Shown: positions 1 through 62,488, counted from the stretch's first letter. The stretch: DNA of 64,000 nucleotides from Patescibacteria group bacterium (GCA_943356485.1 CALRFD010000001.1:137716-201715); one strand, 5' to 3'. The notes: a model not told the origin generated them from the sequence alone. Program-made: numbers and translations.

Positions 1-1556
1 ATGCCGTGGAAGAACATATTTTTAAATGGAATTTGATCGGTAAAATGCAGCGAGAGCATAATCATCCGGGCAATCCAAAGGTATTTAATCTCTCCGGCCG
101 AGATTTCAAAATCCCAGGGGAAATATTTCTCAAATTCTACAGTATTTTCAGGCCAACCTAGTGTGGCCATTGGCCAAAGTCCTGATGAAAACCAGGTATC
201 GAGTAGTTGCTCGTCTTGCACCCAATCCTGCTTCCCACAGCTAGAGCAGTTCTCGGTCGGTTTATTTTGGGAAATTATCACGCCGCGGGAGCTTTTATTT
301 GCCACCTGGTGAGTAGGATTGCAAGATAAGCAGTACCATACCGGAATCTGGTATCCCCACCATAGCGGACGGGAGATGCACCAATCGTGAATATTCTTAA
401 TCCAGTCGGAGATAATTTTCTGATAATTTTTCGGGGCAAAGCTAACCTCGCCAATTCGTTTTAGAGCCTTTTGCGCCAAAGGCTGCATACTCACAAACCA
501 TTCTTCGGAGATAATGGGTTCAACCACTGTCTTACATCTTTCGCAAACTGGTACAGTGTGAGTGTATTCTTCTTCTTTAACCAAAATCCCTTTTTCTCTA
601 AGTTCAGGAAGCATCGCTTCTCTTGCCTCCGCCACTTTCATTCCAGCATACTTGCCGGCAATCTCGGTGAGTCGACCGGTTTTATCTATAACATGAATGA
701 TCGGAAGATTGTGTCTTTTGCCGATTTCGTAATCTACGAAAGAATGACCAGGGGTAACTTTAATCACTCCGGTGCCGAATTTAGGATCAATAGCTTCATC
801 GCCGACTAGCTTCATTTTTCGCATTCCAGTTAACGTTTCGATCTCAAATTCTTTGCCAATATCATTTTTATACCGTTTATCGTTTGGATTAACTGCCATG
901 GCGGTGTCGCCAAATTTAGTTTCTGGTCTGGCTGTAGCTAAAGTGAAAGGGCCGTATTTTAGATAATACAGTTTTTCTTTTCGCTCCTCGTATTCAACCT
1001 CCACATCTTCGATGGCAGTAGCATCTTTGGGGCACCATTGCACAATGTAGGCGCCTTTATAAATTAGATCTTGTTCCCAAAAAGTTTTGAATTCCGTCAG
1101 TACTGCTTTGGCAACTTTGGGATCTAAGGTAAAAACCTCCCTAGACCAGTCAGCAGATAAGCCCATTGTTCTCCAGGTAGCTGAAACTGAGTTGTATGAT
1201 TCTTCTTTAAATTTCCAGGCTCTTTTTAGCCACTCTTCGCGTCCCAGCTTATACTTGGAAGTGCCTTCTTTTTCCAGCAGTTTATTTAACGTGCCTTCGA
1301 ATTGGATTCCGGCATGGTCGACTCCAGGGAGTAGTAAGACATTGAAACCCTGCATTCCCTTAAAACGGGCGATCGCATCCAGTATTGAGTGTTGCATCGC
1401 GTGACCCAAATGCAGCGCCCCGGTCACATTTGGCGGAGGCATTAGTAATGAATAAGGTTTTTTGGAGTCACCAGGGGTTGCTTTAAAATAGTTTTCATCT
1501 TCCCAGAATTTGTACCACTTATTTTCAACTTCTTGTTGGTTATATACCTTGTCCAT
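1..1556 (-). CDS. valS: Valine--tRNA ligase, N-terminal ~518 aa. The start codon is at 1554-1556 and the C-terminus lies beyond the window start.
   Basis: Manual reverse-complement translation gives MDKVYNQQEVENKWYKFWEDENYF...PPNVTGALHLGHAMQHSILDAIARFKGMQG (class I HIGH motif) ...YIVQWCPKDATAIEDVEVEY...TKFGDTAMAVNP, typical of ValRS. Not in the ORF track because it is open-ended. The plus-strand track ORFs 471..1404 are antisense to it. Confidence 0.85.
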   Translation of the reverse strand, partial: MDKVYNQQEVENKWYKFWEDENYFKATPGDSKKPYSLLMPPPNVTGALHLGHAMQHSILDAIARFKGMQGFNVLLLPGVDHAGIQFEGTLNKLLEKEGTSKYKLGREEWLKRAWKFKEESYNSVSATWRTMGLSADWSREVFTLDPKVAKAVLTEFKTFWEQDLIYKGAYIVQWCPKDATAIEDVEVEYEERKEKLYYLKYGPFTLATARPETKFGDTAMAVNPNDKRYKNDIGKEFEIETLTGMRKMKLVGDEAIDPKFGTGVIKVTPGHSFVDYEIGKRHNLPIIHVIDKTGRLTEIAGKYAGMKVAEAREAMLPELREKGILVKEEEYTHTVPVCERCKTVVEPIISEEWFVSMQPLAQKALKRIGEVSFAPKNYQKIISDWIKNIHDWCISRPLWWGYQIPVWYCLSCNPTHQVANKSSRGVIISQNKPTENCSSCGKQDWVQDEQLLDTWFSSGLWPMATLGWPENTVEFEKYFPWDFEISAGEIKYLWIARMIMLSLHFTDQIPFKNMFFHG

Positions 1557-1575
1557 GAGCTTAAGTATATTCAAA

Positions 1576-2739
1576 TTAGTTAGATAGAGCAAGGTTTGGC
1601 TCTGCCTGTAGTTTTAACGGATCAATGGGTTTTTGGAAAAATCCTCTTGAGGCAATCATGGCGGCGTTGTCGGTACAAAGTTCTGGTGGCGGTAGGTGTA
1701 ATTTAACTTTTAACCCTGCCTCGCCGGCAGGCAGGTTTTCACTTTGAATTTTTAACTTGCGAACCAGGAACTGGTTCGCTGCGACGCCACCTGCTATCAT
1801 AATATGCTCAACCTTGTATTTTTGTGCTGCTGCAATAGTCTTTTTAACTAACACGTCAACGATCGCCTGTTCGATTCCGGCTGCCAAATCGCATTTCACC
1901 TCCGAGGAGTCAAAGCCCACCTCGGAGGTGGAGAGTAAATTTGCTACAGCAGTTTTTAACCCGGAAAAAGAAAAATCAAAATCTCTTGAGTTAATCATTG
2001 GACGGGGAAGGTTGAACCTCAAGGCGTCGCCTTGCGAGGCTAATTTAGATATTTCCGGCCCGCCAGGATAAGGCAAACCTAGCAGCCTGGCACATTTATC
2101 AAAACACTCACCTGCTGCATCATCGCGGGTACCACCAAGATATTCATAATTTTGCTCGTCTTTAAATAAAACTAAATCAGTATGACCACCGGAAACCAGC
2201 AGGCCGATGCAGGGAAAGTTAGGTAAGTGACTAGTCGCTAGAGTCAAGAGACTAGGCGTTTTTTTTCTTGACCCTTGACCCTTGACCCTTGACCCTGTCT
2301 CAATCCAATTTGCCCAGAAATGTCCGAGTAAATGATTTACCGGAATTAGTGGCTTATTCCAGGTTAGCGCCAGAGTCTTGGCTGTTTCAACTCCAACTAG
2401 AAGCGACCCGATAAGTCCCGGCCCATAAGTTACTGCAATAGCGTCAATTTTAGAAGCGTAAAGGGGAAAGCGTAAAGCCTGCCTGCCGGCAAGGCAGGGG
2501 GAAAGTTCAGGGAAAGCTTGCTCCAAAGCTTCATTTATGACTGGAATAATGCTTTTGATTTGCTCCCGGGCTGCCTGTTCCGGAATGATCCCGCCGTATT
2601 TAGCCTGCATCTGGGCAGATGAGGCGATAACATTGGATAAAATATGTACCTGCCTGCCGGTAGGCAGGTACGATCCTCGCTTTTCCAGCACTGCCGCTGC
2701 AGTTTCATCACAACTGGTTTCGATGCCTAAAATTATCAT
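1576..2739 (-). CDS. tsaD: tRNA N6-adenosine threonylcarbamoyltransferase TsaD (Kae1/YgjD family). Carries three short in-frame insertions.
   Basis: MIILGIETSCDETAAAVL, LVSGGHTDLV, DDAAGECFDKCARLLGLPYPGGPEISKLA and FSFSGLKTAV match the TsaD core. Extra segments relative to E. coli TsaD coincide with palindromic/SSR DNA (see findings). Confidence 0.9.
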   Translation of the reverse strand: MIILGIETSCDETAAAVLEKRGSYLPTGRQVHILSNVIASSAQMQAKYGGIIPEQAAREQIKSIIPVINEALEQAFPELSPCLAGRQALRFPLYASKIDAIAVTYGPGLIGSLLVGVETAKTLALTWNKPLIPVNHLLGHFWANWIETGSRVKGQGSRKKTPSLLTLATSHLPNFPCIGLLVSGGHTDLVLFKDEQNYEYLGGTRDDAAGECFDKCARLLGLPYPGGPEISKLASQGDALRFNLPRPMINSRDFDFSFSGLKTAVANLLSTSEVGFDSSEVKCDLAAGIEQAIVDVLVKKTIAAAQKYKVEHIMIAGGVAANQFLVRKLKIQSENLPAGEAGLKVKLHLPPPELCTDNAAMIASRGFFQKPIDPLKLQAEPNLALSN

Positions 2740-2850
2740 GTTAATATTCTACCAAATCTAATTGCCAAATATTATTAGTTAATATTGCATTTCCAGTGTA
2801 AATAAGGCGAGGATTGATTAATTAAAGAAAATAGTGTATCCTATAACAAT

Positions 2851-4152
2851 ATGAAACTTGAACAATTAAAGCATTTAATGGAAAGATTTAATCAAGAACC
2901 AGATTTTAGGGAGGCGGTTCGATCTCATAATCCTCATCCCGGGCTTTGGCAAAGGCTTTTGAATCCACCATTAATAGTACCCAGCTATAAAGCAAATTTT
3001 ACTTTAGATCCTATCCAAGCACAAATGCATGGTTTAGAAAAGGATTTTCAGATTGAAGCAGGATCCATAACGGAATTTCCTTTGAGTTCTGCATTGGCTT
3101 TATCAAAATTACCATTCTCTGATGTTAATCGATTAAGGGAAAACGATTTTGGAGTTTGGCCTTCCCTCAGTGAGCCTGACAGAGACCTTTTACGTATAAT
3201 GAATCCGGACTTGGATGGACACTCAATAGATTTTATAATGGGGGGCGTTCATCCTAAGTCTGTGCCTCATATTGAAGATATTGAGTCAAGACAATGGGGC
3301 GCTTTATGGTTTGATCCCCGGCATTTAGCATCTTCTGATACTGCTACTCCTGAGACTAACTTAATTCCAAATATATTTGAAGTGTTATCGGCAGTAGATT
3401 CCTTCCGCGCTCAACAAGGCAAGGATGGGAATCTGTCTCTAAGCTCAAGTAATGAGTGGGTGTTAACTAGCTCTAGGGTACAAGTAGATCTTAAAAAGGA
3501 ATATCGTCAATGGTTAAAAGATAGAGGGTGGTTGGCAGAGTTTTTTCATTCTGCTATTTTAGAAAGATATGTGCCTAATGGGAGTGAAATAAATAATATT
3601 ATTGCTAAAGAAGAAGCCGGAGGTTTCGAGCATAAGAAATCCAGACCTTTGAGGACAAGACTGAATGATGGAAGTAATGTAACGATATTTGAAGATCATG
3701 TTCTGGTTCAAAGAAGAGGAGAAACATTTTATGAGCGTATTTCTGATGATTACATGAGCATTAATACTAAGAAAAATTCTTGGAGTTTGAGAATGGGCAC
3801 ATTGGAGATACAGGATTATACTGACCATACGAGACACTCTTTTAATTTTGATGAGGAGATACTAGATCCGTTAAGGCGATTATTAGGTAGCCATGTAGCA
3901 AAAAGCCTATTTACTACTACACAAGGCATAAATTTATGGGTATGCTTTAGATTAGGTATTAGAGAAGGACTATCAGTTGGAATGTTTGTTCCTAGTACGG
4001 ATGCTATTCCACTTAATGAACATATTTCTATTTCTTTGTTGGATGGAGCTTTTAATGATTTGAAACTTATGGCACCAGCACTTAATCATGTTAGGAAGTA
4101 TGTGCCTCCAGCAATATATCGAGATCAGGATGCACGCAGATTATTGGATTAA
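2851..4152 (+). CDS. Hypothetical protein (433 aa), no recognisable domain.
   Basis: Long ORF with its own AT-rich upstream region containing a GTGTAT box. No motif recognised. Confidence 0.5.
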   Translation: MKLEQLKHLMERFNQEPDFREAVRSHNPHPGLWQRLLNPPLIVPSYKANFTLDPIQAQMHGLEKDFQIEAGSITEFPLSSALALSKLPFSDVNRLRENDFGVWPSLSEPDRDLLRIMNPDLDGHSIDFIMGGVHPKSVPHIEDIESRQWGALWFDPRHLASSDTATPETNLIPNIFEVLSAVDSFRAQQGKDGNLSLSSSNEWVLTSSRVQVDLKKEYRQWLKDRGWLAEFFHSAILERYVPNGSEINNIIAKEEAGGFEHKKSRPLRTRLNDGSNVTIFEDHVLVQRRGETFYERISDDYMSINTKKNSWSLRMGTLEIQDYTDHTRHSFNFDEEILDPLRRLLGSHVAKSLFTTTQGINLWVCFRLGIREGLSVGMFVPSTDAIPLNEHISISLLDGAFNDLKLMAPALNHVRKYVPPAIYRDQDARRLLD

Positions 4153-4236
4153 TGGAATCTCATCACAAGATGTCTCTATACCTAAAATTATCATGGGTGT
4201 ATTGTAGCAAATTAAGTAGTATGGTAAAAATGAACT

Positions 4237-4992
4237 ATGGCAGACCGATTACCCGAGCAAGAAAGTTTAAGCGAGAGAATAGTTAGTTTAGGTCAAGAGT
4301 TTTTAATGTTTGATCCCAGGTTCACAAAAGGAGAATTTAATGAAAGACTTAGTGTGGAGCAATTTAAGGGAGGTAAGATATCACTGGACACAACTGGAGT
4401 TTTGTCTCAAGTGCAGTTTAGTCTAAATTCTTTCCCATCAAGAACAGATAAAAGAGTTTCAATTACCCCTTTCGATCGTGAAATAGGTTATACGATTACA
4501 GAGGAAGACTTTAAATTAGAAGACAGACTTATAAAACACGAGTCAATTAATGGAAAAATTGATGATAGAAGAGCTCCATTACACTTGGAAATTGGGGTAA
4601 CAGAAGCTGGTAAAATTCGATTGCCCCAAGAAATATTATCAGCAGCAAAAGAGTTAAAAGTTCAGCTGCAATTTCCGAACGGACTAATGTTTGAAGCTCA
4701 GCCGGATGAATTATGGTTAAGTAATGGCGAGATAGCATTCAGAAGCTTTTATCCATTAGACACAGGTCCTTTGCCATATGACAGGAAAAGAAATCTCTGG
4801 ATGACTGAGGGATTATATTTATTTGTACCTTCAGATAAAGAGCTGTTAGGCCAAATTAAAGTTAAAATAGTAAAGCGTAAGCAAGGGGAGGATATGGATG
4901 AAGAAATCCCGCCAAAAACTGCCGGGGTTAAAGATAATAATAGCGTTCCGGTTGCATTTAAAGATGCTTTCAAAGATGACCCTGCTTGGTAA
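4237..4992 (+). CDS. Hypothetical protein (251 aa).
   Basis: ORF preceded by the conserved GGGTGTAT...TGGTAAAAAT promoter-like motif, also seen at 6701-6742. Starts MADRLPEQ. Confidence 0.5.
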   Translation: MADRLPEQESLSERIVSLGQEFLMFDPRFTKGEFNERLSVEQFKGGKISLDTTGVLSQVQFSLNSFPSRTDKRVSITPFDREIGYTITEEDFKLEDRLIKHESINGKIDDRRAPLHLEIGVTEAGKIRLPQEILSAAKELKVQLQFPNGLMFEAQPDELWLSNGEIAFRSFYPLDTGPLPYDRKRNLWMTEGLYLFVPSDKELLGQIKVKIVKRKQGEDMDEEIPPKTAGVKDNNSVPVAFKDAFKDDPAW

Positions 4993-5096
4993 TAAAACAT
5001 TCTACCCTTCATCTGACCCAGGCTTCACCCGATCTCTTTTTTGTACTTAGGTAGTCAGGCTGAGTTTTTTAATAGCAATGCCGTATAATTTAGCTA

Positions 5097-5318
5097 ATGA
5101 TATTTATTAAAGAGTTGAATAACGATCAGCTTAACGGATTAGCAAGCTTATGTTTTGATTTAGCCAAAGGGTCTTTTCTGGTGGCACTTTTTCCAACCGT
5201 TGAGATAACCACGAAACCGTTTTTATCATTTATGATGATGCTTATGGGTTTGTTTTTAGGTCTTGTCTTTACTTACATAGCCTTGTTATTATTAAGACTA
5301 AAGGAGGTAGGTAAATGA
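5097..5318 (+). CDS. Small hydrophobic membrane peptide (73 aa; may start internally).
   Basis: Hydrophobic segments LVALFPTV and FLSFMMMLMGLFLGLVFTYIALLLL. The stop overlaps the start of the next peptide (ATGA). Confidence 0.25.
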   Translation: MIFIKELNNDQLNGLASLCFDLAKGSFLVALFPTVEITTKPFLSFMMMLMGLFLGLVFTYIALLLLRLKEVGK

Positions 5319-5440
5319 GCATCGGAGAAATCTTCACACAACTCTATTATAGTGGAATCTTAGCTTTATCCATTATGGCGTTAGCAATTGCGATTATTGT
5401 CTATCCTACTCTGCGCAATAAATCTCAAAAAAAGAGATAA
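5315..5440 (+). CDS. Small membrane peptide (41 aa), MSIGEIFTQLYYSGILALSIMALAIAIIVYPTLRNKSQKKR.
   Basis: Strong SD AGGAGG at 5302-5307, 7 nt before the ATG. One transmembrane helix plus a basic tail. Below the ORF-track length cutoff. Confidence 0.35.
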   Translation: MSIGEIFTQLYYSGILALSIMALAIAIIVYPTLRNKSQKKR

Positions 5441-5510
5441 AAACTATTTCTCCTGTTTGCCTACCTAATATTATCGTGTGTATAAGTCTTGGATTATTTA
5501 ATAATTGCAT

Positions 5511-6692
5511 ATGGCAGGAGCCGGGATTATAATCCAACGTATGCCTGAGCGTAGAGTTGGGGGTTATAATAGAGCTGATAATAAAATAGATCCCAGAGAT
5601 TTTGAGCCTGTTTCTTTGCCTGAAGTCGCTGAACCTCTTAAAAAGCCAGTAGCCCCAAAAAAAACAATAGAGATTGCAGAAGTAATAGATCAGATTAAGA
5701 CAGAGCAGCAGGCATTAGGCCGGTTGAGGGAGTCTGTTACTAAAATGACTGATCCGGATAATAGTATGGCCCGACTTGTCAGCAGGTTGATGTTTGGGAG
5801 TAAAGAACGGGAAGTTAAGGGCGAGGATGGGTTGACGGAAATGCGTCCCTGGACTTTGGCAGACATTTTTGAATTAGACAGGCAAGGTTACCCGGAAAGG
5901 GAAAGAGGAGCCAGAAGAAGCCTCACCCAGGAGACAGTTATTGGTTTACGAGAGCAGCAGGAATTTTTTACTACTGCCGAGCATCCCAGGTTGGCTGAAG
6001 TTGAGGCAGTAATAGATTTTACAACTGCCATTGCAAAGCGGGTTTTAGCCTCAGAGAAATCAATTACAGAGCCATTTACGATTTATGCCTCTGCTACCTA
6101 CGACGAAGCAGAAATGATGGAAATTATCCGCAGGACAATTTTAGAACCAACTTATATGTTAATGGAAGGGCATGCAGAGGGTCCTATCGGGGTAATTCCT
6201 AGCTATGATGAAGACGATGAGTTTTGGGATCCAATGAGTGAAAGGGATCAAAAAGTTAGTTCCCAAATGAAAGATCCAAGAGACTATACAGAGCGGAGGG
6301 AAGTTCAAAAGAGGATAGCTTTAAATAACCCTAAAGGCTATGACAGTGAGAAATGGGAGGAGATTTTAGATAAGGAAGCAATCTATCTTTATCAATATGC
6401 GCTGGTTGCAGCCGGAAGAGATAGCGGAGCGCTGCAAAGAGCAGCCAAGTTTTACGCCAGTTTAACTGATAATGGTCAACCAGTACATTCGAATGAGCAA
6501 TTAGCGCCTCTTAATGTCCGAGTTGAAGAATTAACAAGAATATATGAAGAAATAAAAGGTTTAGAAGGTTTTAGACAACTTTCAGGATGGATTAAACAAA
6601 GGTTTGGTCCGGAGGCTACTTTTCAAACTTTACTGCAAACCCTAAGCCCTGTTGATCTAAATCATCAGCCGGAATTTAACACTGTAATATAA
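5511..6692 (+). CDS. Hypothetical protein (393 aa from the ATG; the track start 5505 is TTG).
   Basis: Start context ATTGCATATGGCAGGA resembles that of the 6748 ORF. No domain recognised. Confidence 0.5.
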   Translation: MAGAGIIIQRMPERRVGGYNRADNKIDPRDFEPVSLPEVAEPLKKPVAPKKTIEIAEVIDQIKTEQQALGRLRESVTKMTDPDNSMARLVSRLMFGSKEREVKGEDGLTEMRPWTLADIFELDRQGYPERERGARRSLTQETVIGLREQQEFFTTAEHPRLAEVEAVIDFTTAIAKRVLASEKSITEPFTIYASATYDEAEMMEIIRRTILEPTYMLMEGHAEGPIGVIPSYDEDDEFWDPMSERDQKVSSQMKDPRDYTERREVQKRIALNNPKGYDSEKWEEILDKEAIYLYQYALVAAGRDSGALQRAAKFYASLTDNGQPVHSNEQLAPLNVRVEELTRIYEEIKGLEGFRQLSGWIKQRFGPEATFQTLLQTLSPVDLNHQPEFNTVI

Positions 6693-6747
6693 TCTAAGCT
6701 GGGTGTATCAGATTGTAATAATTTAATCAGTGTGGTAAAAATATTGC

Positions 6748-7026
6748 ATGGCAGATATTAGTAATACAGAGTTTGGTACTTTGAAAACCGGCACTCCAAC
6801 AAAAGAAGTAGAAGCTATAAAAGGAGGTTTCAGTGAGTTCGCGCAAGAGTATGCAGGTCACCATGGTTTACAAGTTGGTCAAATTATTCCTGAACAATTA
6901 TTTATGGCCGCCTCTGGCAGTTCTAGAGGACGAGATTGTGTTTGGCGTAACCGATTTAGCGCTACAATGGATCCTATCAAAGGGGTTCAGTACTCACATT
7001 TTAAAGTTATCGATAATGATCATTAA
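6748..7026 (+). CDS. Hypothetical small protein (92 aa).
   Basis: Preceded by GGGTGTAT (6701-6708) and TGTGGTAAAAAT (6731-6742) then ATGGCAGAT. Starts MADISNTEFG. Confidence 0.4.
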   Translation: MADISNTEFGTLKTGTPTKEVEAIKGGFSEFAQEYAGHHGLQVGQIIPEQLFMAASGSSRGRDCVWRNRFSATMDPIKGVQYSHFKVIDNDH

Positions 7027-7255
7027 TATCAATGATTTCAACCTCACTATTTCCCCTAATACCAAATACAGCTCGATATTTACGATCGATACGGAAAGAA
7101 TAAATCTTAAAACTCCTCGGTTCTAATATTTCAGTATTTAAAGAGGGGTGTGAGGGATTATTTAAGAAGAGAGTAACCTGTTTGTCAAATTTTTTGACTA
7201 GGCCATGTTTTATAAGGTACTTTTGAAGATCTTCTCTAAGAGGCTTAATGCTCAT
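7007..7255 (-). CDS. Type II toxin, RelE/ParE superfamily.
   Basis: KQVTLFLNNPSHPSLNTEILEPRSFKIYSFRIDRKYRAVFGIRGNSEVEIIDINDH fits the RelE/ParE pattern (NP..P.L..e.L.......S.RI...YR.i). Overlaps the upstream RHH antitoxin ORF by 11 bp. Confidence 0.7.
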   Translation of the reverse strand: MSIKPLREDLQKYLIKHGLVKKFDKQVTLFLNNPSHPSLNTEILEPRSFKIYSFRIDRKYRAVFGIRGNSEVEIIDINDHYR

Positions 7256-7526
7256 AAAAAGAGGATTTACTTAACCCAGAAACCATGTTTTTAATAAACC
7301 TCTCATTATATTTACCGGTCTTTTTAAATCCTTGTTCTATCTCTTCAAGAGGTCGAGGAATAAATTCTTCAAAAATTAATTCTTTAGAACCAAAATACTT
7401 TCTGATTAAACTCCTGACAAATTCAGACCGGGTGGAGAAACCTTCTTTTTTGACCTCAGAGTCAATCTGTTTAGCTATGTGGCTTGGTAAAGAAATAGTA
7501 ATTGTACTCATAAGAATATTTAACAA
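7245..7526 (-). CDS. Ribbon-helix-helix (CopG/ParD-like) antitoxin. May start at the internal MSTITISL.
   Basis: MSTITISLPSHIAKQIDSEVKKEGFSTRSEFVRSLIRKY is a typical RHH N-terminus. Lies immediately upstream of, and overlapping, the RelE-like ORF. Confidence 0.6.
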   Translation of the reverse strand: MLNILMSTITISLPSHIAKQIDSEVKKEGFSTRSEFVRSLIRKYFGSKELIFEEFIPRPLEEIEQGFKKTGKYNERFIKNMVSGLSKSSFYEH

Positions 7527-7558: not shown

Positions 7559-8119
7559 CTAAACCAGGTTTATCTCAGCCAGGGTGTTATGGGAATGGAA
7601 TCCCTCATTTGCCACAGATTCAAAAAGTTTGATTGAGTTGATATTAATATGATCAAAAGACATAGTCATGATCTTTTCCAGCTCCATTTCCAGCTTGCGG
7701 TCGATAAATATCTGTTCGTTGAGCTTGGCAACAGTGATATGTGGAATAAAACGCCTTTCATCAACCGGCAGGTGCAAAGCACTCAGACCGTCTTTGATAT
7801 ATTCCCTGATTAGTAAAACTTTATCTATATCGCCCTTAACTCCCACCCATAAAACATTAGCATGGTGAATATTGGGAAAGCCGTCAAGATAAGCAGGAGT
7901 CACTTCAAATGGAGAAATATCCAGGACAGAATTTCTAATAATTTCTATTAATTTCTCTTTTAAGTTATCCGGTTGCTCGCCGATAAAGGCTAAGGTCAGG
8001 TGAATTTTATCCAAATCAGTTATTCTGGCTTGAGGGATTAATGTATGCAATTTATCTTGAATAGATTGAAACTGGGGGATATTCTCACTCGGTATTTCCA
8101 GGGCGATAAAGAATCTCAT
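7559..8119 (-). CDS. thpR: RNA 2',3'-cyclic phosphodiesterase / 2'-5' RNA ligase (2H phosphoesterase, LigT/ThpR family).
   Basis: Two H-x-T-x motifs, HLTLAFIG and HITVAKL, in a 186-aa protein. Confidence 0.8.
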   Translation of the reverse strand: MRFFIALEIPSENIPQFQSIQDKLHTLIPQARITDLDKIHLTLAFIGEQPDNLKEKLIEIIRNSVLDISPFEVTPAYLDGFPNIHHANVLWVGVKGDIDKVLLIREYIKDGLSALHLPVDERRFIPHITVAKLNEQIFIDRKLEMELEKIMTMSFDHININSIKLFESVANEGFHSHNTLAEINLV

Positions 8120-12032: not shown

Positions 12033-14373
<2,341 letters not shown>

Positions 14374-23171: not shown

Positions 23172-23177
23172 GTCTCT

Positions 23178-23243
23178 TCCCACCCTTCGGGTGGTTTAGC
23201 CCACCTTGCCGGTGAGGCAGACTTCGCACCTATTCTTTTTTGG
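23178..23243 (+). repeat. Copy A of a ~66-bp two-hairpin + U-tract element, about 90% identical to 59471-59536.
   Basis: CCACCCttcgGGTGG (UUCG tetraloop hairpin), TTGCCggtgaGGCAG hairpin, then CTTTTTTGG. Confidence 0.7.
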
Positions 23244-23436
23244 GAAATAGGATAGAAAACTATCTCACCTTGGGGGTCTTAGACTCTTAAGGGAGAGCCG
23301 ATTCGGCTGAGCTCATGGCCTAAGCCCTCAGGCTCAGACTCAAGTGAGGTGTAGAATACCTGCCGGCAGGCAAGATACAATCATGCGAACTGATTGTATC
23401 AAGCACGGAATAACATTTTGAAATAAGCTCTAAATT

Positions 23437-39914: not shown

Positions 39915-39936
39915 AACTTAACTTTAAGTTTACCCA

Positions 39937-39959
39937 GTTGAAGCTAAGAAAGCAACTAA
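39937..39959 (+). repeat. 23-bp direct repeat GTTGAAGCTAAGAAAGCAACTAA, left copy.
   Basis: Exact second copy at 42291-42313. Confidence 0.8.
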
Positions 39960-41622: not shown

Positions 41623-41913
41623 ATGCAAAGGATTATTGTTCAGGTTCCTATGACGAGAGAGTTAAAAGATAAAGCAGAGATTATTTCCGCTGACTTAGGA
41701 TTTTCTTCTTTACAAGAAACTATTAGAGTGCTTTTAACCAAGCTTTCCAAAAAAGAGTTTAGTCTAAGAGTAGAAGAAGAGCAGGAACAGCCAAGTCAAT
41801 ATTTACTTTCTGCAATGAAAAAGGCAAGAGCAAACAGAAAGACGGGCAAAGCATCTCCTGTTTTTGATAATGCCAAAGACGCACTTAAATTTTTAGATGA
41901 ACAAGGTATATGA
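41623..41913 (+). CDS. Putative RHH/RelB-like antitoxin.
   Basis: IIVQVPMTRELKDKAEIISADLGFSSLQETIRVLL. Stop overlaps the start of the downstream RelE/ParE gene (ATGA). Confidence 0.5.
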   Translation: MQRIIVQVPMTRELKDKAEIISADLGFSSLQETIRVLLTKLSKKEFSLRVEEEQEQPSQYLLSAMKKARANRKTGKASPVFDNAKDALKFLDEQGI

Positions 41914-42197
41914 AAATTCAGTATGATCCTGATTTTCTCAAAATTCTTAAAAAAGCAGATGTAAGAATCCGTAAGAGTTTAAGAATAAGAATAGAAATAT
42001 TTTTAAAAAATCCCTCTGATCCAAAACTTAATAATCATAGGCTTAAAGATGAATATGCAGGATATCGGAGCATAGATATTACTGCAGATTATCGTGTAAT
42101 TTATGAGGAGATAAATGAAGGCAATGAATCAATTGCCTATTTTTTATTCATTGGTAGGCATGAATTACTTTACGGTCATCTAAAGAAGATTAGTTAG
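41910..42197 (+). CDS. Type II toxin, RelE/ParE superfamily (second copy).
   Basis: FLKNPSDPKLNNHRLKDEYAGYRSIDITADYRVIYEE, paralogous to the 7007..7255 toxin. Confidence 0.7.
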   Translation: MKIQYDPDFLKILKKADVRIRKSLRIRIEIFLKNPSDPKLNNHRLKDEYAGYRSIDITADYRVIYEEINEGNESIAYFLFIGRHELLYGHLKKIS

Positions 42198-42290
42198 GTA
42201 TAAAGTTTGCCATAACTTTTCCTTTTTGGATTCCTTATTGTATATTGGCATAATTATAGATTAATAGTATTATGGTATAAGAATTATACT

Positions 42291-42313
42291 GTTGAAGCTA
42301 AGAAAGCAACTAA
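42291..42313 (+). repeat. 23-bp direct repeat GTTGAAGCTAAGAAAGCAACTAA, right copy.
   Basis: Exact match to 39937-39959. Confidence 0.8.
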
Positions 42314-45221: not shown

Positions 45222-46578
45222 AGAGAGAGAAAGTTCAGTCAGAGGAGTAAATGAAAATTTGTCGGATTTTTATAAATCCTGGGGAGCATTTGATATCTTT
45301 GAGAAAACGCTGGATCAGCTACCTCCGGACTGGTTAAAAATCTTAAACATTGCCAGAAATCTACTAGACGGGAAAAGAATTCCTGGAGTCAACCTTCCTT
45401 CAACTGTCATGGCTCTGGTAGAGAAGGATCAGGAAATAGTTTTTGAAAAAAGATATATGACCAGAAAATGGCAGCAAAAATCCATCCTACCAGCCACCAG
45501 CATTGATGTTAAAAATCTGGAAGATTTATCTCAATTGCCTAAAGTATTGCCAGCCCACCTCCTGCTGCAGGGCGAAGCGCCGGAAATCTTTGCTTATCGG
45601 GCTCTGACTCATTCTCTACCAATAGCCGAGATGCAAAAACCAAGAGCAATAACAGAAGAAAAATCAGAAACCTTGATGGAACTTGTACCAAAGGCAAGAG
45701 AAAGAACTTCTATGCGGCAAAGAGTCTATGCTTTAATGGATGTTTCTCTCTCAATGAAATCTAATTACAAATTAATCTTTTCCAAAGCTGTCATGTTGGC
45801 TTATTTGGCAAAAGCCCACGAGGAAGGATCAGAGGTTTATTTCCGAGCTTTTGCCGGCAGTGTCGGGGATCTGGTAGCCTGCATCTCTCCTGAGGATTTT
45901 CCTGCTTTGGCAAAGAGGATCTTAGGATACAGGGTCTATCATGGTACTGATATTAGGTATGCTCTCACAACTGCAGTTGAAGATATTTCTAGGATGGAGA
46001 GATTAACTGACAGTAGAAGAGCTAAAACTGAGGTTTTGCTAATATCAGATGGTGAAAGCTATACCCCTATACCCCTGATGCCTAAAAATATAGCTTTGCA
46101 TACCCTGCATTTAGTCGGAGGAGGCGAGGAGTTTATATTAGATAAAGAGTTAAGGCAAATGAGTAACACTTACACCAGGATAGATACAGGAAATTTAATG
46201 CTGCCAAGTATTTCAGAGGAGGCTTGGTTTATGTTTGAGGAGATTGAGAGGCTGGAAGATCAAACAAAAGGTCTGACAGATTCAGAGATGAAATACGATA
46301 GAAGACTGCAGCAAAGAGTTGAAGCTATAAGAAAGCATACAGAAGCATATAGAAAAATCGATTCCAGCGAGAAAGTTAGGGAAAATGCCGGCAGAGCGCA
46401 AAAACTGCATGATAAAGTTTCCTTAGAAAAAGCAGAGGAAAGATTAAAGAAAAAATTAGAATTAATAAGGTATTTTATAAAAAAACTTATGCAAAAAATT
46501 AAGTCTTTCCGATTGCCTAAATTTGACAGAAAGAAAGTATTAGCCGGGAGTTTATTTGATTTTAGAATAAAGGACTAG
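45214..46578 (+). CDS. von Willebrand factor A (vWA) domain protein, ViaA-like partner of the MoxR ATPase.
   Basis: MIDAS motif in RVYALMDVSLSM (DxSxS), then a Thr and LLISDGES. Overlaps the MoxR gene by 8 nt (coupled). Confidence 0.65.
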   Translation: MAKERESSVRGVNENLSDFYKSWGAFDIFEKTLDQLPPDWLKILNIARNLLDGKRIPGVNLPSTVMALVEKDQEIVFEKRYMTRKWQQKSILPATSIDVKNLEDLSQLPKVLPAHLLLQGEAPEIFAYRALTHSLPIAEMQKPRAITEEKSETLMELVPKARERTSMRQRVYALMDVSLSMKSNYKLIFSKAVMLAYLAKAHEEGSEVYFRAFAGSVGDLVACISPEDFPALAKRILGYRVYHGTDIRYALTTAVEDISRMERLTDSRRAKTEVLLISDGESYTPIPLMPKNIALHTLHLVGGGEEFILDKELRQMSNTYTRIDTGNLMLPSISEEAWFMFEEIERLEDQTKGLTDSEMKYDRRLQQRVEAIRKHTEAYRKIDSSEKVRENAGRAQKLHDKVSLEKAEERLKKKLELIRYFIKKLMQKIKSFRLPKFDRKKVLAGSLFDFRIKD

Positions 46579-47521
46579 GATTACCTATTACCTTAACATT
46601 ATTTGTAGTTTGATTTGCTACTTCTTCCAAAGTTATTCCTTTTAACTCTGCAATCAGCCTTGCAATTTCTAAAACTGCAGATGGTTCGTTTCTCTGCCCC
46701 CGTTTGGATTGGAGAGGTAGGAAGGGGCAATCAGTCTCCAGGCAAATTTTATCCAAAGGCAGAATTTTAACAGCCTCTCTTAAGTATTCATTTTTAGGAT
46801 AGGTTAGAGTTCCTCCAAATGACACTAAAACATTAGACATTTTGAGTATTTGGTGAGTGGTTCTGGTCAAACCACTGTAGCAGTGGAAAATAGCCGGGTA
46901 ATCACCTATTAAATTTAACGTTTCATCCCAGGCTTCGCAGTTTTCTGGATTTTTAGAGCGGTCATCCCGGCAGTGAACTATTAAAGGTAAGTCTAGCTTT
47001 TTAGCCAGATCAATCTGGGCTTGAAAAAGTCTTCTTTGTAGCTCTTTTTCGTGATTGTGAGAAAGTTTACCGGTTCGACTGAGCTCACCGTCGAAGTCCT
47101 GAACTTGTTTCAGGGTGGCAATCTCTGTTTCTCTAAAGTAATAATCCAGCCCGCATTCCCCAACAGCGATAACCTTTTTCGGATTTTCTCTATAAATTTT
47201 TTCCAGTTGAGTAATGTCTTCGTTGACATTTTTGCAACGATCGTCGTATTTTTGTCCAGGTAAGGAATAATTTATAGCCTCATGCGGGTGAATACCGATT
47301 GTTGAATAAACCTTCAATCCTGGAATGTCTGACAGTTTACCGGTTCGACTGAGCTCACCGCCGAAGTCCTGAGCTTGTCGAAGGGCTTTTTTCGATGATT
47401 CAATATCTACCCCAACATTTATAATGGTAGTTACACTGGCATCAAGAGATCGTTTTATAACTTCATCAAAATCCGGTTTAAAACTGTCCCAATATAAATG
47501 GGCATGGGTGTCTATCAGCAT
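46562..47521 (-). CDS. tatD: TatD-family metal-dependent deoxyribonuclease. Carries two in-frame ~48-bp repeat insertions.
   Basis: MLIDTHAHLYW, GIHPHEA, AVGECGLDYY, LIVHCRDD and the C-terminal DCPFLPL. Duplicated inserts encode QDFGGELSRTGKLS and QDFDGELSRTGKLS. Confidence 0.85.
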   Translation of the reverse strand: MLIDTHAHLYWDSFKPDFDEVIKRSLDASVTTIINVGVDIESSKKALRQAQDFGGELSRTGKLSDIPGLKVYSTIGIHPHEAINYSLPGQKYDDRCKNVNEDITQLEKIYRENPKKVIAVGECGLDYYFRETEIATLKQVQDFDGELSRTGKLSHNHEKELQRRLFQAQIDLAKKLDLPLIVHCRDDRSKNPENCEAWDETLNLIGDYPAIFHCYSGLTRTTHQILKMSNVLVSFGGTLTYPKNEYLREAVKILPLDKICLETDCPFLPLQSKRGQRNEPSAVLEIARLIAELKGITLEEVANQTTNNVKVIGNPSPLF

Positions 47522-47612
47522 GCATTAATTATACACTTGTAAGAATAAATACAATTTTCTTGTAATTATCAATACTATATGTTATATACCATGATGCAAT
47601 TTAATTGAGTTA

Positions 47613-48302
47613 ATGACTAATATGAAACTAGCAGAAAGATTGTTAAAAATTTGGCAGCCAGGCGACTTTAAGCAGATTTTTGAAAAATTTTCCAATAAAA
47701 AGGAATTTATGGTCAAAAAGGGCACGGTTTTATTTAATGAAGGGCAGCCACTGGATAGGATCTTTTTCATAAAATCTGGTTTTGTTAAGTTATACCGTCT
47801 TTCAGAAGAAGGTCGGGAATCGATAATTTATCTATATGGTGCAGGACAGATTCTGGGGATAAGGGCGCTTACTTCTGAGGATGAATGTGCCAGGCATTTT
47901 GCAGAAGCAATAACTGATCTTGAAGTAGTAAGCATCACCCGCGGCGAATACCTTGAAGCTGTAGCAGAAAATCCTGAATATTTATTGGATCTTTTGCATG
48001 TTTTTATAGACAGATTAAATTATACAGAGAAAAAATTGACCGGATTTATTTTGACTGATACTGTGGCCAGAGTTGCCTTTTTCCTGTCAGATTGCGCCAC
48101 CCGTTTTGGGATCAGTAAAAAAGACACGGTGGAGTTGCCGATAGAATTAACCCATCAAAGAATAGCGGAGTTTGTGGGTTCTTTTAGGGAAACTGTCACT
48201 TTAGCAGTTCAAAAATTAGAACAGATGGGCATTATTAACATCAAAAAAAGTAAAGTAGCTATCCTGGATTTAAAAAAACTGCACAAGCTCGCCGGATTGT
48301 AA
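47613..48302 (+). CDS. Crp/Fnr-family transcriptional regulator (cNMP-binding + HTH).
   Basis: TVLFNEGQPLDRIFFIKSGFVKLYRLSEEGRE (cNMP fold) and the C-terminal HTH QRIAEFVGSFRETVTLAVQKLEQMGII. Confidence 0.8.
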   Translation: MTNMKLAERLLKIWQPGDFKQIFEKFSNKKEFMVKKGTVLFNEGQPLDRIFFIKSGFVKLYRLSEEGRESIIYLYGAGQILGIRALTSEDECARHFAEAITDLEVVSITRGEYLEAVAENPEYLLDLLHVFIDRLNYTEKKLTGFILTDTVARVAFFLSDCATRFGISKKDTVELPIELTHQRIAEFVGSFRETVTLAVQKLEQMGIINIKKSKVAILDLKKLHKLAGL

Positions 48303-58231: not shown

Positions 58232-59395
58232 CTATTTCCTAAATAATGCGACATAATCCTTCATCTCAAATAGCCTATTCCTAGAATAGCCTGTTTTTTC
58301 CTGTAGAATATCTAAGCCCGTAAGATCTGATACAAGATCACTTGCGGCTTTAAAACTTACACCCAGAACTTTACTCACATTATTTACACTTACGATAGGT
58401 TGAGAGAATAGATATATCAGCAACTGTCTTGCTTTTGGAACTTTTCTTCCTAAGGTAGTAATTTTATTATCATATTGCTCACGAAGAGTAATAATATTCT
58501 CGAATTTTTGTTTCCCCTTATTACTAGTCACTACAACTCCTTCAAGAAAGAAACGAACCCACCCTTCGAGATTATTCTTCTGTCTGACTTCATCAAGGGT
58601 CTCGTAATATGATTGACGATATTCCTCAAAATAGTCAGAAATATACAAAACTGGTTTAGTAAGGAAGCCACGCTCTATTAGTTGTAAAGTGATAAGTAGC
58701 CGACCGATGCGGCCATTTCCATCGAGAAATGGATGAATAGTTTCAAATTGATAATGCATAATAGCTATTTTTATCAGTATTGGTATATTTAACGAAGAAT
58801 TATGCCAAAATTTTTCCCAATCAGAAAGCAATCCTGCAACTTCTGTGTGTTGAGGGGGGACGTAATGAGCTGTACGAATAGAAGAACCTCCAATCCAGTT
58901 TTGGCTTGTGCGAATTTCACCAGGTAATTTATGCTTACCTCGAACGCTAGTTAGAAGACGAGAGTGAGTGTCTTTTATGAGCCTTACCGAGACTGGTAAT
59001 CTTTTAAGTTCTTCAACAGACCAGTTCATGGCATTGATATAATTTCTAACCTCTCGCCAATCGTCACGACGCTCAGGATCTATTTCGTCTTCTGGGAGCA
59101 ATACCTCATCTATTTCTGTACGGGTGCCCTCAATTCTGGAGGAGCTTACAGCTTCTGATTTAACATGCATCTGAATGAAATAATCAATATCAGGTACGAG
59201 CCTTGAATACGCATTCAATTCACCAAGTAGGCGTGTCGCCTCTTCTAAAAGTGTAATAGTGGATTGGTCATTAGCTATAAATGGCCTATTGATACCAGAC
59301 GGCAGAAAACTGGTATACTCAGCATCCATGCCGACAAGTATTTTTTGATTTGTTCCTGCAGTAAAGTCTTTCATACTGTAAATATAACACATCAT
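58232..59395 (-). CDS. Fic-family protein (second copy).
   Basis: Fic motif HPFLDGNGRIGRLLITLQL in a 387-aa protein. Confidence 0.8.
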   Translation of the reverse strand: MMCYIYSMKDFTAGTNQKILVGMDAEYTSFLPSGINRPFIANDQSTITLLEEATRLLGELNAYSRLVPDIDYFIQMHVKSEAVSSSRIEGTRTEIDEVLLPEDEIDPERRDDWREVRNYINAMNWSVEELKRLPVSVRLIKDTHSRLLTSVRGKHKLPGEIRTSQNWIGGSSIRTAHYVPPQHTEVAGLLSDWEKFWHNSSLNIPILIKIAIMHYQFETIHPFLDGNGRIGRLLITLQLIERGFLTKPVLYISDYFEEYRQSYYETLDEVRQKNNLEGWVRFFLEGVVVTSNKGKQKFENIITLREQYDNKITTLGRKVPKARQLLIYLFSQPIVSVNNVSKVLGVSFKAASDLVSDLTGLDILQEKTGYSRNRLFEMKDYVALFRK

Positions 59396-59470
59396 ATTTT
59401 ACTTTGCAAGTATAAAGTAAAATAAGGATTTCTATATTATAGATCACAAACGCCGATAATTTCCCAAATT

Positions 59471-59536
59471 TTCCACCCTTCGGGTGGATTAGCCCGCCTT
59501 GCCGTCGAGGCAGGCTTTGCACCTTTCCTTTTTTGA
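59471..59536 (+). repeat. Copy B of the ~66-bp two-hairpin + U-tract element, followed by a CCACCTCC...GGATTAGGTAG box at 59542-59573.
   Basis: CCACCCttcgGGTGG, TTGCCgtcgaGGCAG, CCTTTTTTG. About 90% identical to 23178-23243. Confidence 0.7.
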
Positions 59537-59581
59537 AATTATTCCACCTCCAAAGGGGATTAGGTAGGCACAGTTGACGTC

Positions 59582-59608
59582 TTGACTTCGGGTTGTTTTC
59601 GGTATAAT
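59582..59608 (+). promoter_or_regulatory. Sigma70-like promoter TTGACT-15-TATAAT upstream of the Bro-N gene.
   Basis: TTGACT at 59582-59587 and TATAAT at 59603-59608; ATG at 59617. Confidence 0.5.
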
Positions 59609-59616
59609 GTAATCGT

Positions 59617-60132
59617 ATGGATGCTAAAGTTGCATTATTTGAAAACCAACGAATTCGTAGAGTTTGGCATAACAACGAGTGGTGGCTTTCTGTGGTTGAT
59701 GTTTGTAAAGCATTGACTGGTAGTCCTGATTCCGGGTCATATTGGAGAAAATTAAAACAAAGATTAAAGGAAGAAGGAAGTGAAGTCGTGACATTTTGTC
59801 ACGGGTTGAAGTTAGAAGCACCTGACGGAAAATTACGTGAAACTGATTGTGCTAATATAGGGAGTTTTGATTTAAAAGTTGATGAATATAAAGATTTAAA
59901 AGGTTTGGATAAAGAAAATTTACGTGATCATATGAATGATATTGAATTAATTTTGACAATGTTAGCAGAAGCAACTACAACTAAAATTCATAAAGGCAGA
60001 GATTCACAAGGTTTCCCAAAGCTTAAAAAAGATGCCAAAGATGGTGGTGGTGTTGCAGGAAGGACACGTAAAGATATTGAGCAAGTAAGTGGTAAAAAAG
60101 TTATAAGTACTAAAAATTATTTACTAAAATAA
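59617..60132 (+). CDS. Bro-N (phage antirepressor N-terminal) domain protein.
   Basis: LFENQRIRRVWHNNEWWLSVVDVCKALTGSPDSGSYWRKLKQRL matches the Bro-N pattern. Confidence 0.6.
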   Translation: MDAKVALFENQRIRRVWHNNEWWLSVVDVCKALTGSPDSGSYWRKLKQRLKEEGSEVVTFCHGLKLEAPDGKLRETDCANIGSFDLKVDEYKDLKGLDKENLRDHMNDIELILTMLAEATTTKIHKGRDSQGFPKLKKDAKDGGGVAGRTRKDIEQVSGKKVISTKNYLLK

Positions 60133-61926: not shown

Positions 61927-62250
61927 ATGACACACAAGAATATATCATTGCGCTGTATTACTTATCAAGAAAAAGATGGCTCTTTTACAGGGGTTTGTCT
62001 TGATTTGGACATCGTGGAAGAGGGACATATTAGCTTAGAAGAGGCAGTTCTAAGCATTAACGATGCTATTTTATCTCATTTTCAAGCTGCTGCGAAGTTG
62101 GATTTTCCCAAAGAGTTGGTCACTAGATTAGCGCCAAAAGAGTATTGGAACAAACTAAAAGAAGTTACCCAAGAAAACCCATCTCACAAAAAGTTTGAGC
62201 CGTTCCAATTTTTTACCAGACAATTTACTCCTGGTTTGATGTATGCCTAA
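61927..62250 (+). CDS. hicB: HicB-family antitoxin.
   Basis: LRCITYQEKDGSFTGVCLDLDIVEEGHISLEEAVLSINDAILSHFQAA fits the HicB N-terminal fold pattern. Overlaps the downstream HicA gene by 8 nt. Confidence 0.55.
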   Translation: MTHKNISLRCITYQEKDGSFTGVCLDLDIVEEGHISLEEAVLSINDAILSHFQAAAKLDFPKELVTRLAPKEYWNKLKEVTQENPSHKKFEPFQFFTRQFTPGLMYA

Positions 62251-62488
62251 ATATAAACCTCTTAAATATCGTGATGTGGTCACTATTCTAAAAAATCTAG
62301 GTTTTATTCAAGAAAGCGGTACTGGTTCTTCACACCAAACATGGGTTCTAAAAAGAAACGGCATGAGTTTTGCTGTAACGGTTGCTTTTCATGGAAATAA
62401 TCAGGAATTTAGGCCGGGTACTTTAGGATCAATGATTCGCCAAAGCGGATTTACAAAAGAAGAATTTTATAAAGCTCTCAAAAACTAA
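62243..62488 (+). CDS. hicA: HicA-family toxin (mRNA interferase).
   Basis: KYRDVVTILKNLGFIQESGTGSSHQTWVLKRNGMSFAVTVAFHGNNQEFRPGTLGSMIRQSGFTKEEF matches the HicA/YcfA pattern (..GSH..F......TVP.H...L..GTL..I...G). Confidence 0.65.
   Translation: MPKYKPLKYRDVVTILKNLGFIQESGTGSSHQTWVLKRNGMSFAVTVAFHGNNQEFRPGTLGSMIRQSGFTKEEFYKALKN

Follow-up and report, generated by a model that had tools for sequence, protein, structure and literature searches.

A 64,000-nucleotide stretch of DNA from a Patescibacteria group bacterium (GCA_943356485.1, CALRFD010000001.1:137716-201715; hereafter the window) carries, next to the conserved gene tsaD, a block of four open reading frames (ORF1 to ORF4) whose upstream regions had been described in a first-pass annotation as copies of a promoter cassette serving a co-regulated gene set. 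On balance, the tsaD 5' end was probably the target of repeated homology-anchored insertion of foreign DNA, and the block would be the resulting array of scars, in which pieces of tsaD and its promoter lie stranded between genes of unrelated sequence. The coordinates of the four ORFs were confirmed and, in agreement with that annotation, no domain could be recognized in any of them: comparisons with Pfam, PHROGs, PADLOC, NCBIfam, and PDB sequences returned no family match. The locus arrangement is no assembly artefact, since it recurs in two other assemblies with 99.9-100% identity (Logan contig, 100% across 1901-5631; ENA contig, 99.93% across 1222-4036). Exact-protein look-ups with ORF1 and TsaD returned the same strain only.

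The clearest of these pieces of tsaD lies on the minus strand just beyond ORF1. Nucleotides 4159-4194 encode MIILGIETSCDE, which is exactly the first 12 residues of the neighbouring TsaD (12/12 amino acids; the resident N-terminus is MIILGIETSCDETAAAV). The stub, designated tsaD', begins 1-6 nt past the ORF1 stop codon, and its homology to tsaD fades over codons 13-14. When the terminal 24 residues of 59 called genes were compared with the window, tsaD' was the only clear gene-end stub (E=8e-5). At the DNA level, 7 of its 36 positions differ from resident tsaD (~80% identity) and all seven differences are synonymous, whereas none of 200,000 random placements of seven changes kept the stub peptide. 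Since a fragment decaying in place would behave otherwise, this pattern indicates that the stub diverged inside a functional tsaD of another lineage and was separated from that gene only recently. The similarity between stub and resident gene is not confined to the coding part. The DNA repeat as a whole is 75% identical over 60 nt, and an alignment of 57 nt between the tsaD-ORF1 spacer (module M1) and the region around the stub (module M2) spans the -10 element and tsaD codons 1-12. Additionally, M1 and M2 have an identical block of 15 nt, CCTAAAATTATCATG, which is matched at 13/15 positions in a third module (M3) and is absent from a fourth (M4).

Upstream of the start codon, the resident arrangement TGGTAGAAT-attaac-ATG, with its -10 at 2746-2754 (minus strand) and 6 nt from the ATG, corresponds to TGCTACAAT-acaccc-ATG in the stub. 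The GGGTGTAT box that had been noticed ahead of ORF2 (4195-4202) is the reverse complement of ATACACCC, that is, the last two -10 bases and the 6-nt spacer of the stub promoter. A metagenome scan for ATACACCC combined with a degenerate tsaD start returned four contigs; because all four have a full-length tsaD preceded by TAYAATACACCCATG, this predicted arrangement is a genuine tsaD promoter configuration. The TAYAAT-ACACCC-ATG string stands before tsaD in one 43% GC contig (L088; 7296-7312) and in three 66% GC contigs (L089, L090, and L091), and the same leaderless promoter-start spacing and spacer sequence is found in very different genomes. Within the window, the stub region (4141-4209, minus strand) has an apparently intact predicted leaderless promoter (TGCTACAAT-N6-ATG) and a 17-codon ORF (MIILGIETSCDEIPLIQ, then a stop) that converges into the last codons of ORF1. 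If the stub promoter is active, it would generate antisense RNA to the 3' end of ORF1.

The resemblance between the regions upstream of ORF2 and ORF4, on which the first-pass annotation was built, is well supported. The common pattern, GGGTGTAT ... TGGTAAAAAT ... ATGGCAGA, is present at 4195-4244 and at 6701-6755, with 75% identity over 44 ungapped nt (44/58 columns, or 76%, when gaps are allowed). Among the 1830 pairs formed by the upstream regions of the 61 window genes, this pair ranks first with a score of 36, and the runner-up scores 32. With either M2 or M4 as the query, the other module is the best non-self, non-tsaD match in the window (36 vs a background maximum of 28-29), and no further instance of GGGTGTAT combined with TGGTAAAAAT is present there.

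Each of M2 and M4 is a compact predicted back-to-back promoter. In M2, the plus-strand elements are TTGTAG (4202-4207), N17, and TGGTAAAAAT (4222-4231), followed by the ATG at 4237, and the minus-strand elements are TTTACC (4223-4228), N16, TGcTACAAT (4201-4209), and ACACCC, followed by the stub ATG. Similarly, M4 has TTGTAA (6713-6718), N17, and TGGTAAAAAT (6733-6742) before the ATG at 6748 on the plus strand, and TTTACC (6734-6739), N16, and TACAAT (6712-6717) on the minus strand; a promoter scan found the minus-strand TTTACC-N16-TACAAT at both 4228-4201 and 6739-6712. In both modules the plus-strand -35 (TTGTAG or TTGTAA) overlaps the minus-strand -10, and the minus-strand -35, when reverse-complemented, gives the plus-strand -10 (GGTAAA). 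The leftward half of M2 still faces the tsaD stub. The leftward half of M4 faces only the 3' end of ORF3 and has no gene to drive, as would be expected of the leftover of a divergent promoter of the tsaD type. Here and below, the activity of promoters and the leaderless starts are predicted from sequence.

A fainter trace, M3, lies upstream of ORF3 and reads ATACAC-ac-GATAATATTAGGTA. The GATAATATTAGGTA portion (5462-5475) matches 13/14 bases of tsaD codons 1-5, and the ATG has been lost. With one mismatch or less, the 14-mer GATAATTTTAGGTA is found only at 2724-2737, 4179-4192, and 5462-5475 (128 kb, both strands), in all three cases on the minus strand. The best partner of M3 in the window is M2, although the match is marginal (27 vs 25).

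It had been claimed that a GTGTAT box and an extended -10 precede every one of the four ORFs. This description fits ORF2 and ORF4, but not ORF1 or ORF3. ORF1 has no TGGTAAAAAT, and GTGTAT falls within its own -10 region; its probable promoter is TTGATT (2814-2819), N17, TATCCT (2837-2842), N8, and ATG. The region upstream of ORF1 (2811-2840) also forms the second-best promoter pair in the window, with 47541-47650 (minus strand) upstream of the gene at 46562-47521 (AGGATTGATTAATTAAAGAAAATAGTGTAT vs AGTATTGATAATTACAAGAAAATTGTAT). In the case of ORF3, two homologues start with MSERR and MAERK, equivalent to M11 of ORF3, behind TATAAT-N7-ATG. Since both begin at the residue-11 equivalent in this way, the ATTGCATATGGCAGGA string upstream of ORF3 is most likely a -35 hexamer (TTGCAT, 5505-5510) and spacer rather than a start-codon context, and the true start of ORF3 is probably the ATG at 5541, not that at 5511. 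What ORF3 has of the module is the decayed trace in M3.

Other components of the likeness are widespread. A TAnn[AT]T hexamer lies 3-12 nt before the ATG in 23/61 window genes, many of these hexamers being TGGTATAAT-like. At least nine other window genes start with ATGGC, and ATGGC(A/T)GA contexts are common. In this genome of 38% GC, the predicted extended -10, its closeness to the ATG, and starts with ATGGC are all generic features, and leaderless or near-leaderless genes with an extended -10 appear to represent the housekeeping style. The spacings are of the leaderless type throughout the locus: 5 nt from TGGTAAAAAT to ATG for ORF2 and ORF4, TATAAT-N7 for ORF3 and for the first of two small hydrophobic ORFs, TGGTAGAAT-N6 for resident tsaD, and TGCTACAAT-N6 for the stub. 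They fit the pattern of leaderless genes with extended -10 promoters of the sigma-70 type, for which a TGnTAnnnT-like -10 ending ~6-8 nt before the start and the lack of a Shine-Dalgarno sequence are characteristic. The first-pass annotation had itself named a generic housekeeping promoter as the finding that would undo its proposal, and half of this holds, in that the shared -10 and start context are of the housekeeping style.

Table 1. Coordinates of genes, stubs, and promoter modules at the tsaD locus (positions within the 64,000-nt window).
Feature	Position	Strand	Remarks
leuS-like gene	left end of window, beside tsaD	minus	
Resident tsaD, 387 aa	1576-2739	minus	Pfam TsaD, E=2.3e-82; conserved anchor gene of the proposed array
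Module M1 (tsaD-ORF1 spacer)	2740-2850		resident tsaD promoter and probable ORF1 promoter
ORF1, 433 aa	2851-4152	plus	orphan; cargo nearest tsaD
tsaD' stub	4153-4194	minus	codons 1-12 at 4159-4194, then IPLIQ and stop
Module M2	4195-4236		predicted back-to-back two-way promoter
ORF2, 251 aa	4237-4992	plus	small conserved family
Small hydrophobic ORF, 73 aa	5097-5318	plus	gene call in contig L001, codon usage
Small hydrophobic ORF, 41 aa	5315-5440	plus	gene call in contig L001, codon usage
Module M3 (decayed tsaD'' stub)	5450-5483	minus	
Probable ORF3 promoter	5505-5540	plus	TTGCAT, N17, TATAAT 5528-5533, N7, ATG 5541
ORF3	5541-6692 (383 aa) or from ATG 5511 (393 aa)	plus	
Module M4	6701-6747		M2-like predicted two-way promoter without tsaD coding stub
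ORF4, 92 aa	6748-7026	plus	orphan; 20-nt overlap of its 3' end with the convergent ParE-like gene
ParE/RelE-like toxin	7007-7255	minus	Pfam (below cut-off)
RHH antitoxin	7245-7526	minus	Pfam RHH_1
LigT 2H phosphoesterase	7559-8119	minus	Pfam LigT

The neighbours previously named to the right of the block, a RelE/RHH module and a 2H phosphoesterase, are indeed there, with Pfam matches for RHH_1 and LigT and a score below the Pfam cut-off for the ParE/RelE-like gene (Table 1). The first small hydrophobic ORF has its own TATAAT (5084-5089) and N7 before its ATG. No Rfam families and no tRNAs were found in the window. Foreign base composition was considered as a sign of origin, but the GC contrast of the block (35-45% vs 38% for the window) is not diagnostic.

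ORF1 to ORF4 are probably real genes, because their codon usage is host-like in the annotated frame and in no other, with scores comparable to those of tsaD and LigT. Among 5.8 billion proteins ORF1 matched only itself. ORF4 has no credible homologues, its sole matches being repetitive giant proteins (multi-kinase and Calx-beta) that were judged spurious. ORF2 is a member of a family of 15 proteins of unknown function with invariant ITPF, FP, and DTGPLP motifs. Its AlphaFold2 model is confident (predicted local distance difference test [pLDDT] score, 81.5; predicted template modelling score, 0.76) and matched no fold in PDB or BFVD. Distant ORF2 homologues are stable neighbours of PhoU and M29 peptidase genes on higher-GC contigs, and homologue neighbourhoods are otherwise unrelated; therefore, ORF2 is an ordinary conserved protein of unknown function and not a mobility gene. 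ORF3 is mostly helical and has two homologues (49% and 28% identity), and its AlphaFold2 model is poor and unreliable (pLDDT, 49.6).

Pairwise comparison within the block showed that the products of ORF1 to ORF4 are mutually unrelated. The possibility that they are paralogues was rejected, a hexapeptide in common (FDPR) not being significant. Homologues of ORF2 and ORF3 elsewhere lie in unrelated neighbourhoods and never occur together, and the four cargo genes do not form a set. A viral origin was rejected (no ORF2-family locus in IMG/VR, only sub-threshold PHROGs scores, and no fold match in BFVD), as was a defence system (no match in PADLOC).

Comparable scars are present at two other loci. 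In the contig that carries the closest ORF2 homologue (L082), pyrG is directly followed by that homologue, a Bro-N gene, and then a displaced pyrG C-terminus with its own stop and the promoter of the next gene. The two pyrG 3' ends (4425-4474 and 6322-6385) encode PYPIFMGFVGAAAKIK and PHPLFMGFVEAASKIK, which agree at 12/16 residues, and most of the DNA differences are synonymous. In a second contig (L087; 12-50, 64-73, and 840-865), a VapB/PIN pair has a diverged copy of the ORF3-type promoter on either side; the remnant closely matches the ORF3 promoter of the window (GCATGGCAGGAGCAGGC...), and the ORF3 homologue has a different TATAAT-N7-ATG allele. The pyrG and ORF3-promoter scars therefore indicate that, in these low-GC genomes, insertions at the end of a gene with diverged copies of that end on both sides are a recurrent event. 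The second contig also contains, just upstream of the vapB -35, a 10-mer (ATACACCCAT) in common with the tsaD stub leader; the occurrence of ATACACCC there was considered as another tsaD stub, but the shared 10-mer is suggestive rather than demonstrable.

From these observations we infer the following mechanism and order of events. In this lineage tsaD would be leaderless and would have a back-to-back promoter of ~45 bp in common with a divergent neighbour gene. Foreign DNA of related lineages would have recombined into the locus more than once, pairing through tsaD as a homologous anchor (and perhaps leuS), with each incoming piece bringing the tsaD 5' end and two-way promoter of its source lineage along with the gene next to them. 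The far-side join would be non-homologous, either by homology-facilitated illegitimate recombination or by a single crossover with a circularized fragment, which would give the same topology. Each event would shift the previous tsaD stub, promoter, and cargo gene downstream, and the right-hand half of each displaced two-way promoter would still drive its cargo gene. The upstream regions of ORF2 and ORF4, and vestigially that of ORF3, would then look alike because displaced two-way tsaD promoters were retained before cargo genes, and the copies would be leftovers of the tsaD start rather than a purpose-built cassette for a co-regulated set. Consistent with a displacement array, the full-length anchor gene is accompanied by stubs in the same orientation (4159-4194 and the decayed 5462-5475), and the better preserved stub derives from another allele or lineage, given its 7/7 synonymous differences and the presence of its ATACACCC leader before real tsaD genes elsewhere. 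The duplicated promoter cassette of the first-pass annotation survives in part: a module has been copied, clearly at ORF2 and ORF4 and as a trace at ORF3, but it is not a dedicated one, being the divergent promoter of tsaD.

Several observations weigh against this reading. A TsaD scan of contigs for close relatives, in which universal TsaD motifs dominated the matches, gave a best match of only 46-48% identity, without synteny; for that reason neither intermediate arrangements nor a donor came to light. The stub lies within ~10 nt or less of a cargo stop codon at three junctions (4152->4153, 5440->~5445, and, in L082, 6316->~6322), which is neater than would be expected of random illegitimate joins, unless the junctions were trimmed by deletion afterwards. 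M4 resembles M2 more than M3 does, which misfits an order in which older copies lie further from tsaD, and M2 and M4 may instead be the flanking repeats of one 2.5-kb insert. The M3 alignment score is itself marginal (27 vs a background of 25-28), and the promoters and leaderless starts that the mechanism invokes are read from sequence.

The main rival, which is considered unlikely, is site-specific integration of cassettes. A trans-acting enzyme would insert small circular cassettes without a recombinase, each carrying a replacement tsaD 5' end and promoter, at an att site that overlaps the start of tsaD, as in pseudo-SCC (staphylococcal cassette chromosome) elements at rlmH or in integron cassettes. 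The position of the stub directly after the cargo stop codon at three junctions would be expected from such a process, as would the similar stub lengths (~40-60 nt), the identity of the 15-nt block between resident gene and stub (13/15 in M3), and units of 1.3-1.9 kb without a mobility gene. However, a crude motif screen detected no recombinase signature in the proteins of the 64-kb window, and neither the cargo proteins nor the toxin-antitoxin and LigT neighbours match a recombinase-like family. No conserved palindromic core was seen, M4 is without the putative core, and the scars elsewhere are at other targets (the pyrG 3' end and the ORF3 promoter), which argues against a single att site. 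SCC and pseudo-SCC arrays at rlmH/orfX, and islands at tRNA 3' ends, consist of serial insertions bounded by degenerate gene-end copies, and some of their units are recombinase-less. The tsaD locus is like them in its proposed serial insertion beside one conserved gene with degenerate end copies. It differs in that the window yielded no recombinase and no defined att core, in that each unit is one gene, and in that a 5' end together with its promoter would be targeted. Nor does the locus look like an integron array, in which an intI integrase with attI adjoins promoterless cassettes with palindromic attC ends: the crude screen of window proteins gave no recombinase motif, and the genes around the block encode TsaD, the ParE-like protein, RHH, and LigT; each cassette gene has its own -10 located 6-8 nt from the ATG, and the repeats are derived from tsaD and are not attC-like. 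It is also conceivable, but distinctly improbable, that a trans-acting and possibly unrecognized mechanism inserts single-gene cassettes precisely at housekeeping gene termini in such small, probably Patescibacteria-like genomes (the tsaD 5' end, the pyrG 3' end, and the ORF3 promoter), with the cassettes supplying both a new gene end and a leaderless promoter. Such a mechanism would be a form of integron-like gene capture without an integron integrase or attC.

The model of the first-pass annotation, in which four genes acquired duplicates of one promoter cassette and retained them for co-expression (a mobile promoter or regulon), has in its favour that ORF2 and ORF4 have the best-matching upstream regions and that GGGTGTAT with TGGTAAAAAT is unique in the window. 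It is nevertheless very unlikely. What was copied contains part of the tsaD coding sequence as well as a promoter facing the other way, and neither serves the cargo genes; ORF1 is without the module, and ORF3 has only its decayed trace. Additionally, the proteins are unrelated, ORF1 and ORF4 are without credible homologues, the ORF2 and ORF3 homologues are unlinked in other genomes, and the -10 and start context are generic. Co-regulation of these genes as a functional set is not supported. Putative mobile promoters have been defined by at least 80% identity over 50-100 nt upstream of non-homologous genes (Matus-Garcia et al. 2012, PMC3488235). The present case is alike in having similar upstream regions before non-homologous genes of one genome, but 75% over 44 ungapped nt (76% gapped) falls short of that threshold, and the copies can be traced to the tsaD promoter and coding start. 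Chance likeness among generic sigma-70-type leaderless promoters in an AT-rich genome might be invoked, since promoter-like matches are no more frequent in the window than in shuffled sequence and generic promoter pairs reach scores of 27-32, a range that includes M3. In contrast, a 12/12-residue tsaD stub beside tsaD (E=8e-5 in the window search) and the 14-mer test are not accounted for in this way, and M2-M4, with a score of 36, is the first of 1830 pairs and falls within the same 4-kb block. As the sole cause, chance is excluded for M1/M2 and is unlikely for M2/M4, and as an explanation of the whole locus it is most improbable. Least probable of all is that the tsaD 5' end, its promoter, and the neighbour gene were duplicated in tandem at the locus itself and the copies then diverged. 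The direct repeats share one orientation and are spaced by about a gene length, which speaks for this scenario, but an unused stub would have gained mostly non-synonymous-type changes whereas 7/7 are synonymous, and the cargo proteins differ in size and have no similarity.

If the sequential displacement of tsaD ends is correct, the locus is a variant of a known sort of recombination-scar array, in which a housekeeping 5' end has been displaced together with its two-way promoter. Orphan arrays at type VI secretion system (T6SS) effector-immunity and Rhs loci have been attributed to homology-facilitated illegitimate recombination (PMC5361080; the Rhs C-terminal displacement as cited within that paper). 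In T6SS, Rhs, and contact-dependent inhibition (CDI) arrays, as here, a conserved gene segment serves as a recombination anchor, incoming modules push the old end and its companion downstream, and same-orientation stubs and orphaned genes remain whose sequences point to other lineages. In contrast, the displaced piece in those arrays is a 3' toxin end and the companions are immunity genes, whereas here they are the 5' end and promoter of housekeeping tsaD and unrelated genes of unknown function, respectively. Moreover, the stubs at tsaD carry a predicted two-way promoter that would keep the orphan expressed, and the event order is proposed without population intermediates. In prokaryotic bidirectional promoters, one short pseudo-symmetrical region can engage RNA polymerase both ways (PMC12825309, PMC10268837). 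M2 and M4 are like such promoters in that one short region has predicted promoters in both directions. The published class has overlapping -10 elements in common. In M2 and M4, which are predicted from sequence, the -35 overlaps the opposite -10 instead, and the start codons are 43-48 nt apart.

Under the displacement reading, the block would document, in compact form, the way in which a bacterium with a small genome acquires and retains genes specific to its lineage, the foreign DNA entering via homology in an essential gene. A displaced gene start would leave a working promoter behind, and the orphaned neighbour would stay expressed, which would provide a concrete origin for "mobile promoters". 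A simple screen would also follow, namely the comparison of N- and C-terminal peptides of housekeeping genes with nearby DNA. For annotation, the lesson is that look-alike promoters need not mean a regulon.

Several other repeats and genes were observed in the window. Copies of a GC-rich palindrome that is perfect or nearly so, CCTGCC(T)GCCGGCAGGCAGG, lie at 1715-1735, 2478-2498, and 2649-2668 within tsaD, and at 13632-13651 and 23359-23370. The three tsaD copies coincide with in-frame insertions relative to the TsaD of L088, and they resemble Rickettsia palindromic elements in being small and inserted in frame into coding genes. Also inside tsaD is a tandem repeat of three to four CTTGACC units (2270-2296), in a region that is an insertion when compared with other TsaD proteins. 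A repeat of 66 nt (23177-23242 and 59470-59535; 86% identity) contains the hairpin CCACCCTTCGGGTGG, ends in a T-run, and is probably a dispersed terminator-like or miniature element. Two copies of a 63-nt direct repeat (86% identical) lie 270 nt apart at 47053-47115 and 47323-47385, inside the gene at 46562-47521, and a 30-nt repeat, TTACCCAGTTGAAGCTAAGAAAGCAACTAA, is 90% identical between 39930-39959 and 42284-42313, in or near two intergenic regions 2.3 kb apart. Finally, small accessory-looking genes were recognized by eye from N-terminal sequence at 41623-42197, 58232-60132, and 61927-62488; the candidates include a second RHH/RelE-like pair, a Fic-like gene beside a Bro-N-like protein (MDAKVALFENQRIRRVWHNNEWW...), and a HicB/HicA-like pair.

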